Notes under the pieces: generated by a model | Database searches by the model: none | Told to the model about the DNA's origin: nothing | The model's input: only the letters and a program-made list of their open reading frames with translations | Position numbers and translations under genes: made by a program | In this document: one piece after another, positions 26,037-27,154 of the stretch | How positions within the stretch are numbered: position 1 is the first letter of the stretch | How the letters are laid out: each line of letters starts with the position of its first letter | Origin: a virus | Lineage: Duplodnaviria; Heunggongvirae; Uroviricota; Caudoviricetes | Virus record (IMG/VR): IMGVR_UViG_2740892230_000022 | Strand: one strand, 5' to 3' | Length of the DNA: 28,932 nt

Positions 26037-27154
26037 GCAACCAGGGGTTCTCAAAATTCCGGTCCGGTCCAAAAAACGTCGTCGCTCGCTGAACAAATTC
26101 CGTTCCCGCTTTCCCGGTCGCCGCCAGGTATCTCGCGTAACGCCTCACACCATCCAGCATGGTCTCTGGTGGCACCCCCTCGCGCAATCTGGCCTTCCAG
26201 GCACTGAATGCGGATTTCTTCGGGTTTGCTCCGGCACGCAACGGGTACTCCCGCCAGACCTGTTCGAACACATCCGGATAATCCACTCGTCCCACAGACT
26301 GCCCGGTGTTTTCCGGGACTACCCGATCGGCTTCCCGCTGAATGGCGGAATCGGCTTCGGGCTGCTGCAGTTGGTGTGATTGCTCCGGCCTTGCGGTCAT
26401 CACCTGCTGCACAGCGCCCGAATCGGCTTTCAGCGCATACGCTGAATCGGCTTCCGGTGTCGTGCCTGCTGGCTGACCAGGATTGACGGTCTGAACATCC
26501 CCTGCCTGGTTCGTGGCGTTTTTTACGCCATGGACCATAGTGTTTTGATCTTCTTGATCTGTATCTTTATCTGTATCTTTATCTGTNNNNNNNNNNGGGC
26601 TGGCCAGGAGTGACGGTCTGAACATCCCCTACATGGTTCGTGGCGTTTTTTACGCCAGGGACCATAGTGTTTTGATCTTCTTTATCTGTATCTCTATCTG
26701 TATCTTTATCTGTCGTGACTCGTCGTGACATGTGCGTGACATTTCGTGACGCGCCGTGACAATCGCCATTTTGTTCCCGCTTTCTTTCCCTCTCACGCTG
26801 CGCCCTCTTGCGCTCTGCAGGAGATTTTGCGGTTTGCGAAATATTGCCGTTGTCCTCTTTAAGCACCTGGCGTTTTTCCCATCCAGTGATTAAATCACCA
26901 TCAAGTACCCGCCCCTGCATCGTCTGCAAAATTGAATCAATTACCTCTTCTGTCACGTCGAGCGCACTTGCCAAATCTTCTGTCGTGACATCAATGTGAC
27001 CTCGCGTGACATTTCGTGACGCGCTCACCAGGAGGTGGATATACACTGCCATCACTGTTGCAATTGGCTGCCCTGACACCCTGGCAATTGTTCGCCACTT
27101 AGGGTCATTTGGCATGTCATGCCATAATCTGAGCCAGGCGTTAGCCATACTCAC
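26037..27154 (-). CDS. replication initiator / replisome organiser (lambda O-position), composite of two alleles, 3' end off-contig
   Basis: N-terminal (MS)MANAWLRLWHDMPNDPKWRTIARVSGQPIATV... is HTH-like; an acidic TDKDTD(R/K)DTD linker is encoded by 12-bp DNA repeats; the gene contains phased CGTGAC iterons. Sits between the YdaT-like and DnaC-like genes. Start at 27154 (GTG) or 27148 (ATG). Confidence 0.55.
26714..26760. repeat. five CGTGAC direct repeats at 10-11 bp phasing (candidate ori iterons) inside the O-like gene
   Basis: CGTGAC at 26714, 26724, 26735, 26745 and 26755. Immediately preceded by 12-mer repeats ATCTGTATCT(C/T)T at 26684-26713. Confidence 0.55.
26984..27020. repeat. second phased (C/T)GTGAC iteron set inside the O-like gene
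   Basis: CGTGAC at 26984, TGTGAC at 26995, CGTGAC at 27005 and 27015. GCGTGACATTTCGTGACGCGC is shared with the 26734-26755 set. Confidence 0.5.

Follow-up and report, generated by a model that had tools for sequence, protein, structure and literature searches.

Phased iteron arrays within a phage replisome organizer gene mark a probable lambdoid-type prophage replication origin

The replication origin of phage lambda lies in the middle of gene O, in the DNA encoding the linker that joins the DNA-binding half of the protein to its helicase-recruiting half, and consists of iterons followed by an AT-rich tract (PMC7466680). In SPP1, the origin-binding 'replisome organizer' gp38 has direct repeats together with an AT-rich unwinding element within gene 38, a helicase loader and helicase act downstream, and a second, distant set of repeats, oriR, is also bound (PMC6316719). 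The Rep boxes of pSK41 are similarly central in rep, where the origin DNA encodes a linker and the N-terminal domain (NTD) of the protein is DnaD-like (PMC5703833). An origin placed inside the gene for its initiator is a textbook principle; the result described here is useful but unsurprising to a specialist. Our literature search, which was of incomplete coverage and took in these iterons, the Eru-type Stx modules, phage D3 and Rac oriJ, found no description of this origin, and no experimental report, for any initiator in this family, of binding, unwinding or autonomous replication.

We analysed a 28,932-nucleotide stretch of prophage DNA (the window), in which a gene for a 'phage replisome organizer' contains two helically phased arrays of a short motif, CGTGAC on the plus strand and GTCACG in the sense of the gene. 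Comparison with related loci suggests that this region is very probably a lambdoid-type prophage replication origin that lies within the gene encoding its own initiator, as a sequence-only reading of the window had proposed from the arrays. Several features are shared with lambda O and ori-lambda, and with the Stx phages 933W and P27: the linker-encoding repeats are followed along the direction of transcription by an AT-rich tract, the N-terminal half of the protein and the origin move together in mosaics, and the locus lies in an early operon downstream of cro and a gene in the cII position. There are also clear differences. The cores are 6–7 bp, in direct orientation every 10–11 bp, whereas lambda has four to six dyad-symmetric iterons of 19 bp; there is a second array inside the coding region of the DNA-binding domain; the partner gene in the window allele is DnaC-like rather than lambda P; and the initiator lacks sequence homology to O. 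As in SPP1 gp38, an N-terminal fold of the DnaD-NTD or Phage_rep_org_N class is suggested, with a sequence match that is sub-threshold, but the second array is 260 bp away in the same gene rather than 13 kb away, the hosts are Proteobacteria, and the helicase-recruitment modules differ and are interchangeable. Compared to the RepA_N plasmids and pSK41, this is a phage replicon of Gram-negative hosts, with two arrays, a different repeat format and no RepA_N domain.

The window is a patchwork, with 34 N10 joins between 35 short pieces of median length 562 nt. About half of the joins have end-to-start overlaps of 50–200 nt at 85–96% identity, adjacent pieces best match different reference prophages (2013C-3264-like, ST866-like, 689R5-like and Tritos-like), and the scaffold appears to chain together contigs from two or more related prophages. 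The initiator gene (25974–27148, minus strand; 356–372 aa in intact alleles) is cut by N10 at 26027–26036 and 26587–26596 and is lengthened by a duplicated overlap of 116 nt. When mapped on the intact Tritos and 689R5 genes the pieces 26037–26586 and 26597–27148 overlap by this 116 nt, the left piece being 99.6% identical to the 2013C-3264 allele and the right piece 99.6% identical to that of ST866; the segment 26471–26586 (minus strand) duplicates 26598–26713 from the second allele at 94% identity over 116 nt. Because the pieces overlap and match different strains, the 12-mers at 26552–26586 represent the same position in the other allele. A second 12-mer allele had been proposed at 26557–26586, and it does derive from another allele, but as a scaffolding overlap rather than a separate genomic array. 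The assembly does break within these repeats, at the N10 at 26587, as had also been pointed out, but with one join per 850 bp and two alleles co-scaffolded this is unexceptional among the 34 joins; a difference between alleles in 12-mer copy number is a plausible reason for a break at that particular spot. Another trace of the second allele is a copy of the 3′ end of the initiator gene at 24000–24074, beside an N10 at 24075 and 2 kb from the main copy, which is 100% identical to the ST866 allele. We also note that a large share of the database entries for the initiator are labelled 'partial' and come from very short contigs (a protein homologue search gave a cluster of 1121 members), indicating that short-read assemblies commonly break inside this gene.

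The anatomy of the repeats follows directly from the site positions. In the distal array (26714–26760, minus strand), CGTGAC begins on the plus strand at 26714, 26724, 26735, 26745 and 26755, a spacing of 10, 11, 10 and 10 bp, corresponding to five GTCACG copies on the sense strand and confirming the five copies at 10–11 bp reported at first reading; Tandem Repeats Finder places the 10-bp array at 26712–26761. The proximal array (26984–27020, minus strand) has exact sites at 26984, 27005 and 27015 and a degenerate TGTGAC at 26995 (spacing 11, 10 and 10), giving three copies of GTCACG and one of GTCACA at 10, 10 and 11 bp in gene sense. This second phased set had likewise been recognised together with a block shared between the arrays, which we find as the 21-mer GCGTGACATTTCGTGACGCGC within a 39-nt stretch of 72% identity between them; in part, the two arrays code for a similar peptide, ASRNVT, read in the same frame. 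A single hexamer in the opposite orientation (26952–26957, plus strand) lies downstream of the proximal array in gene sense, at a distance of about 30 nt, and Tritos, pAEv1818 and phi1 have a copy at the equivalent relative position. With this inverted copy at 26952 included, nine of the 24 exact CGTGAC sites in the 28.9-kb window fall within 307 bp, compared to an expectation of 0.16 (Poisson 2e-13), and no further phased motif clusters were found elsewhere in the window. The units are direct repeats of 10–11 bp with a core of 6–7 bp and no dyad, and the lambda type of iteron (about 19 bp with an internal dyad, at about two helical turns) was not found. We propose that the distal array forms the core initiator-binding sites of the origin, and that the proximal array also binds the initiator, in an accessory or regulatory role. 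The proximal array might be modelled on plasmid P1, in which RepA has two arrays of one iteron, incC with the AT-rich origin and incA with a regulatory role; the P1 iterons are 19 bp and the arrays flank the gene, rather than lying inside it as they do here.

Immediately past the distal array in the sense of transcription is an AT-rich tract (26663–26713), a candidate DNA unwinding element, which is the GC minimum of the gene at 29% compared to about 50–60% elsewhere. It holds a 12-bp repeat, ATCTGTATCT(C/T)T, present in 2.9 copies at 26679–26713 (Tandem Repeats Finder), and translation on the minus strand bears out the earlier observation that these 12-mers encode an acidic TDKDTD linker. The number of copies is variable, with about 6.5 in 2013C-3264 (positions 4254–5372 of locus L173; six TDKDTD units in a protein of 372 aa) and about three here (356 aa), and in other relatives the 12-mers are replaced by runs of GATAAA or GAAGAA that also encode an acidic or lysine-rich linker. 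On account of this variation the 12-mers, which had been taken to mark the origin, and do lie in the origin region, are more likely an AT-rich unwinding tract than initiator-binding sites. Just beyond is an imperfect inverted repeat (26633–26665) with 14-nt arms and a 5-nt spacer, to which the inverted repeat past the AT tract of lambda can be likened; inverted repeats at this position are weakly enriched across the family (mean best stem 7.0 versus 6.2, Mann-Whitney p 9e-8, for loci that are not independent), and this could be an accessory origin element. An Rfam search identified no RNA family in the origin region.

The initiator has no significant Pfam match (E≤0.01), but matches PHROG 3729, 'replication initiation protein', with an E value of 1e-124, and is named 'phage replisome organizer' by NCBI. 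Phage_rep_org_N (PF09681) is hit below threshold over nearly the whole model (16.6 bits against a cut-off of 23.3, E 0.008, model positions 1–119 of 121), and none of 31 relatives matches it at E≤0.01. Lambda Phage_rep_O (PF04492) is not matched even at E≤10, nor is the RepA_N Pfam domain found. The gene had been called 'O-like', and this holds in the sense of a functional analogue, with homology to lambda O rejected by the empty Phage_rep_O search. An AlphaFold2 model of residues 1–183 is confident for residues 11–90, which form three helices, a loop, a helix-turn-helix and a beta hairpin, that is, a winged helix, followed by a helix at 110–126 and a disordered tail; the NTD of this model has a DnaD-NTD-like winged-helix fold. 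A Foldseek search of the model against the PDB gave no significant match, and a profile of 31 sequences found nothing among PDB sequences at E≤1. In this model the distal array encodes a disordered linker (aa 130–146, pLDDT <50), and the proximal array lies within the coding sequence of the DNA-binding domain, where aa 43–56 correspond to the end of a helix and a loop. The C-terminal tail, NHISEPDTEIPPGFRG (25974–26026, the last ~24 codons), is weakly similar to the C-terminus of E. coli DnaT (NF002770, E 0.0015, positions 156–179 of 179). In the E. coli operon dnaT precedes dnaC, and the order in the window, an initiator with a DnaT-like tail preceding a dnaC-like gene, parallels this.

The DnaC-like helicase loader gene (25221–25967, minus strand) starts 6 nt past the initiator stop codon, and its product matches NF009043 (509 bits, cut-off 389), PF01695 IstB_IS21 and phrog_50, 'DnaC-like helicase loader'. 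It scores 299 bits with the DnaC equivalog NF005931, under the cut-off of 357, and it is therefore DnaC-like rather than DnaC itself. In the complete genome of 2013C-3264 the gene order is repressor, cro, a YdaT-family gene, the organizer, the DnaC-like gene, DUF1627 and DUF977. The window has an immunity switch (27874–28627) upstream of the replication genes, identified by HTH_3 and HTH_17 matches and by near-identical annotated loci, which contains a Cro-like gene (27874–28133, minus strand) and a CI-like HTH repressor (28208–28627, plus strand); in ST866 there are divergent promoter-like sites between these two genes. We propose that transcription from the switch crosses the YdaT-family gene and then the initiator gene and origin. 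In both Tritos and ST866 the initiator is followed by a DUF977 protein without a recognisable helicase loader, so that the same origin module seems to use different or host-only loading routes.

The extent to which this arrangement is conserved was examined with homologues of the NTD, which tblastn finds in Aeromonas and Pseudomonas phages (73–74% identity), a spring-water podovirus (48%), Ralstonia (38%) and cyanobacteria. Tritos and its Aeromonas, Pseudomonas, podovirus and Ralstonia relatives all have two phased arrays, at about nt 125–165 and 390–430 of the gene, built from GTCACG in Tritos, Aeromonas and Pseudomonas, CGAACGC in the podovirus and GCAACGC in Ralstonia. When a single genome was scanned for each species, 80 loci were obtained, from Gamma-, Beta- and Alphaproteobacteria as well as from other groups; 75 of them were usable, and a phased array was defined as at least three copies spaced 10–11 bp apart. 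A distal array is present in the linker-coding region of 65 of the 75 species-level homologues, and both arrays are present in 49, although these loci are phylogenetically related and such counts overstate the number of independent events. Ten of the 75, and one distant cyanophage, have no phased array as so defined. The proximal array is found at nt 129/139/149/160 in about 20 genera. In 51 of the 65 loci with a distal array, the last distal copy is followed at 0–60 nt (median 6 nt) by the start of the lowest-GC 40-nt window in the first 650 nt of the gene. The most distant relatives have the linker cluster alone or no cluster, which makes the linker array, along with its AT tract, look like the core element and the proximal array an accessory one. 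The distance between arrays (~221–281 bp) does not follow multiples of the helical turn, and we have dropped the idea of helical phasing between them. A scan of viral contigs yielded exclusively E. coli prophages of 100% identity, and was uninformative for co-variation and 12-mer copy number. The module is very common in E. coli, where 1821 of 5426 complete genomes, Shiga-toxin-producing strains among them, have it in up to four copies.

A comparison of iterons across alleles, suggested at the outset as a check on the origin, shows that the motif changes between lineages but is matched within a gene. There are five motif classes (GTCACG, CGAACG, GTAACG, GTGACG and GCAACG), which switch within single protein subclades, and the same hexamer is used in both arrays of a gene at 42 of the 45 loci with a clear majority hexamer in each (permutation mean 15, maximum 28 in 10,000). 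A conserved array with an adjacent AT tract and a matched motif is, at the level of sequence, the mark of initiator-specific iterons accompanied by an unwinding element. Counting against an origin are the very short units, with cores of 6–7 bp one helical turn apart, a format that departs from lambda and from most plasmids (iterons of 17–22 bp), and no DnaA boxes are found within one mismatch in the 6.5-kb Tritos locus. A different explanation is that the arrays act as regulatory operators alone, for autorepression or as a transcriptional roadblock in the early operon, with the origin elsewhere in the prophage. An operator would fit with the location of the sites in a transcribed gene, with the lack of AT-rich DNA beside the proximal array, with a weak promoter-like match that the iterons generate on the antisense strand, and with the frequent autoregulation seen in iteron-binding plasmid Rep initiators. 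However, we consider this explanation unlikely, because the pairing of the distal array with the AT-richest tract at 51 of 65 loci is needed by an origin and not by an operator, no other phased cluster is present in the window to mark an origin elsewhere, and lambda, SPP1 and pSK41, experimentally proven systems of like logic, place their origins at exactly this position (PMC7466680, PMC6316719, PMC5703833).

The simplest reader of the sites would be the NTD of the protein that they help to encode. GTCACG is found in phages of Escherichia, Aeromonas, Pseudomonas, Bordetella and Chromobacterium, whereas Enterobacter and Pantoea relatives use GTAACG, so the motif does not track the host; identical arrays adjoin four different immunity repressors, so it is also independent of the repressor. 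The arrays are always co-inherited with the NTD, with a mosaic junction just past the array. For example, E. coli HCP5S3_I4 has its junction inside the AT-rich 12-mer tract, just past the array, at a point equivalent to ~26691–26700 in the window. Conceivably the sites are bound by another protein, be it a host factor, the repressor of the prophage or a protein for packaging or partition, and short phased repeats do also serve terminase small subunits and ParB-like proteins; the lack of host tracking, the identical arrays beside four unrelated repressors and the co-inheritance with the NTD across mosaic junctions make this highly improbable. We note that beyond its junction HCP5S3_I4 (locus L172, 1488–2958), which has the same NTD and both arrays, has a different C-terminal half, a Pfam DnaT DNA-binding domain, and is followed by a short lambda-P-like protein.

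The hexamers are conserved as DNA despite the degeneracy of the code. Sense-strand GTCACG copies occupy frames 0, 1 and 2, and in 2000 synonymous-codon permutations the mean number of GTCACG was 1.6 and the maximum 5, compared to the 8 observed, with a similar outcome in four relatives. In 20 GTCACG-class sequences from different genera, a set partly picked for having the array and hence with a mild ascertainment bias, the eight third-codon positions in the proximal hexamers are invariant, while the other 46 third-codon positions of that 174 nt have a mean entropy of 1.28 bits. The shared ASRNVT peptide and the patchwork scaffold might raise the thought that a repeated peptide, chance or misassembly produced the repeats, but we reject both a protein-level repeat, since all three frames are used, synonymous sites in the hexamers are invariant and the shuffles never reach the observed count, and an assembly artefact, since finished genomes and isolated phages carry identical arrays, leaving this explanation a negligible chance.

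Assuming that the locus is an origin, we infer initiator binding, AT-tract unwinding, helicase loading and origin activity along the following lines. The winged-helix NTDs would bind (T)GTCACG units in head-to-tail order, with one to each helical turn, the five-copy array being bound within the DNA that encodes the disordered linker. The resulting nucleoprotein array would destabilise the adjoining 29%-GC tract of 12-bp repeats, and the C-terminal domain of the initiator would recruit the host DnaB helicase via the neighbouring DnaC-like loader. Early transcription from the cro-side promoter is expected to cross the origin. The four-copy array 260 bp upstream would bind the same initiator in an accessory capacity, and may build a larger complex, or control copy number or expression.

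We speculate further, with considerable doubt, that this is a large, uncharacterised class of proteobacterial phage origins in which the sites are written twice in the initiator gene, with one array falling within the codons for a surface loop (aa 43–56) of the DNA-binding domain. If this loop reads the site, then a change in the iteron would rewrite the loop, and the specificities of protein and site would be physically coupled; this would account for repeated clean switching among five or more motif classes, and several related prophages could replicate independently in one cell. For specificity residues outside the array-encoded loop, the signal is inseparable from phylogeny. Homologues occur across the Proteobacteria, yet are usually annotated as 'hypothetical protein' or 'replisome organizer' with the origin unmarked. 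Recognition of the origin and its specificity classes would allow typing of prophage replicons and help to predict cross-activation or interference among co-resident prophages, and the module could be used for orthogonal initiator/origin pairs. The repeats and multiple alleles would also account for the frequent breaks in the initiator gene in short-read assemblies.

Several other observations concern individual relatives and the remainder of the window. The homologous initiator of Pseudomonas phage phi1 (KT887557; ~2498–3400 of locus L004) is unannotated in the GenBank record, and the PACT201 copy reads through several frameshifts. Within 1140–3143 of the window there are four tRNA matches that resemble two duplicated pairs, those at 1140 and 2532 having identical scores and those at 1316 and 2688 near-identical scores, and this duplication is probably another scaffold overlap. 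The same region contains the sRNA STnc100 (2874–3082) and the anti-GcvB sRNA AgvB (3084–3143, minus strand), a tRNA and sRNA content that EHEC-type lambdoid prophages typically have in their late regulatory region.
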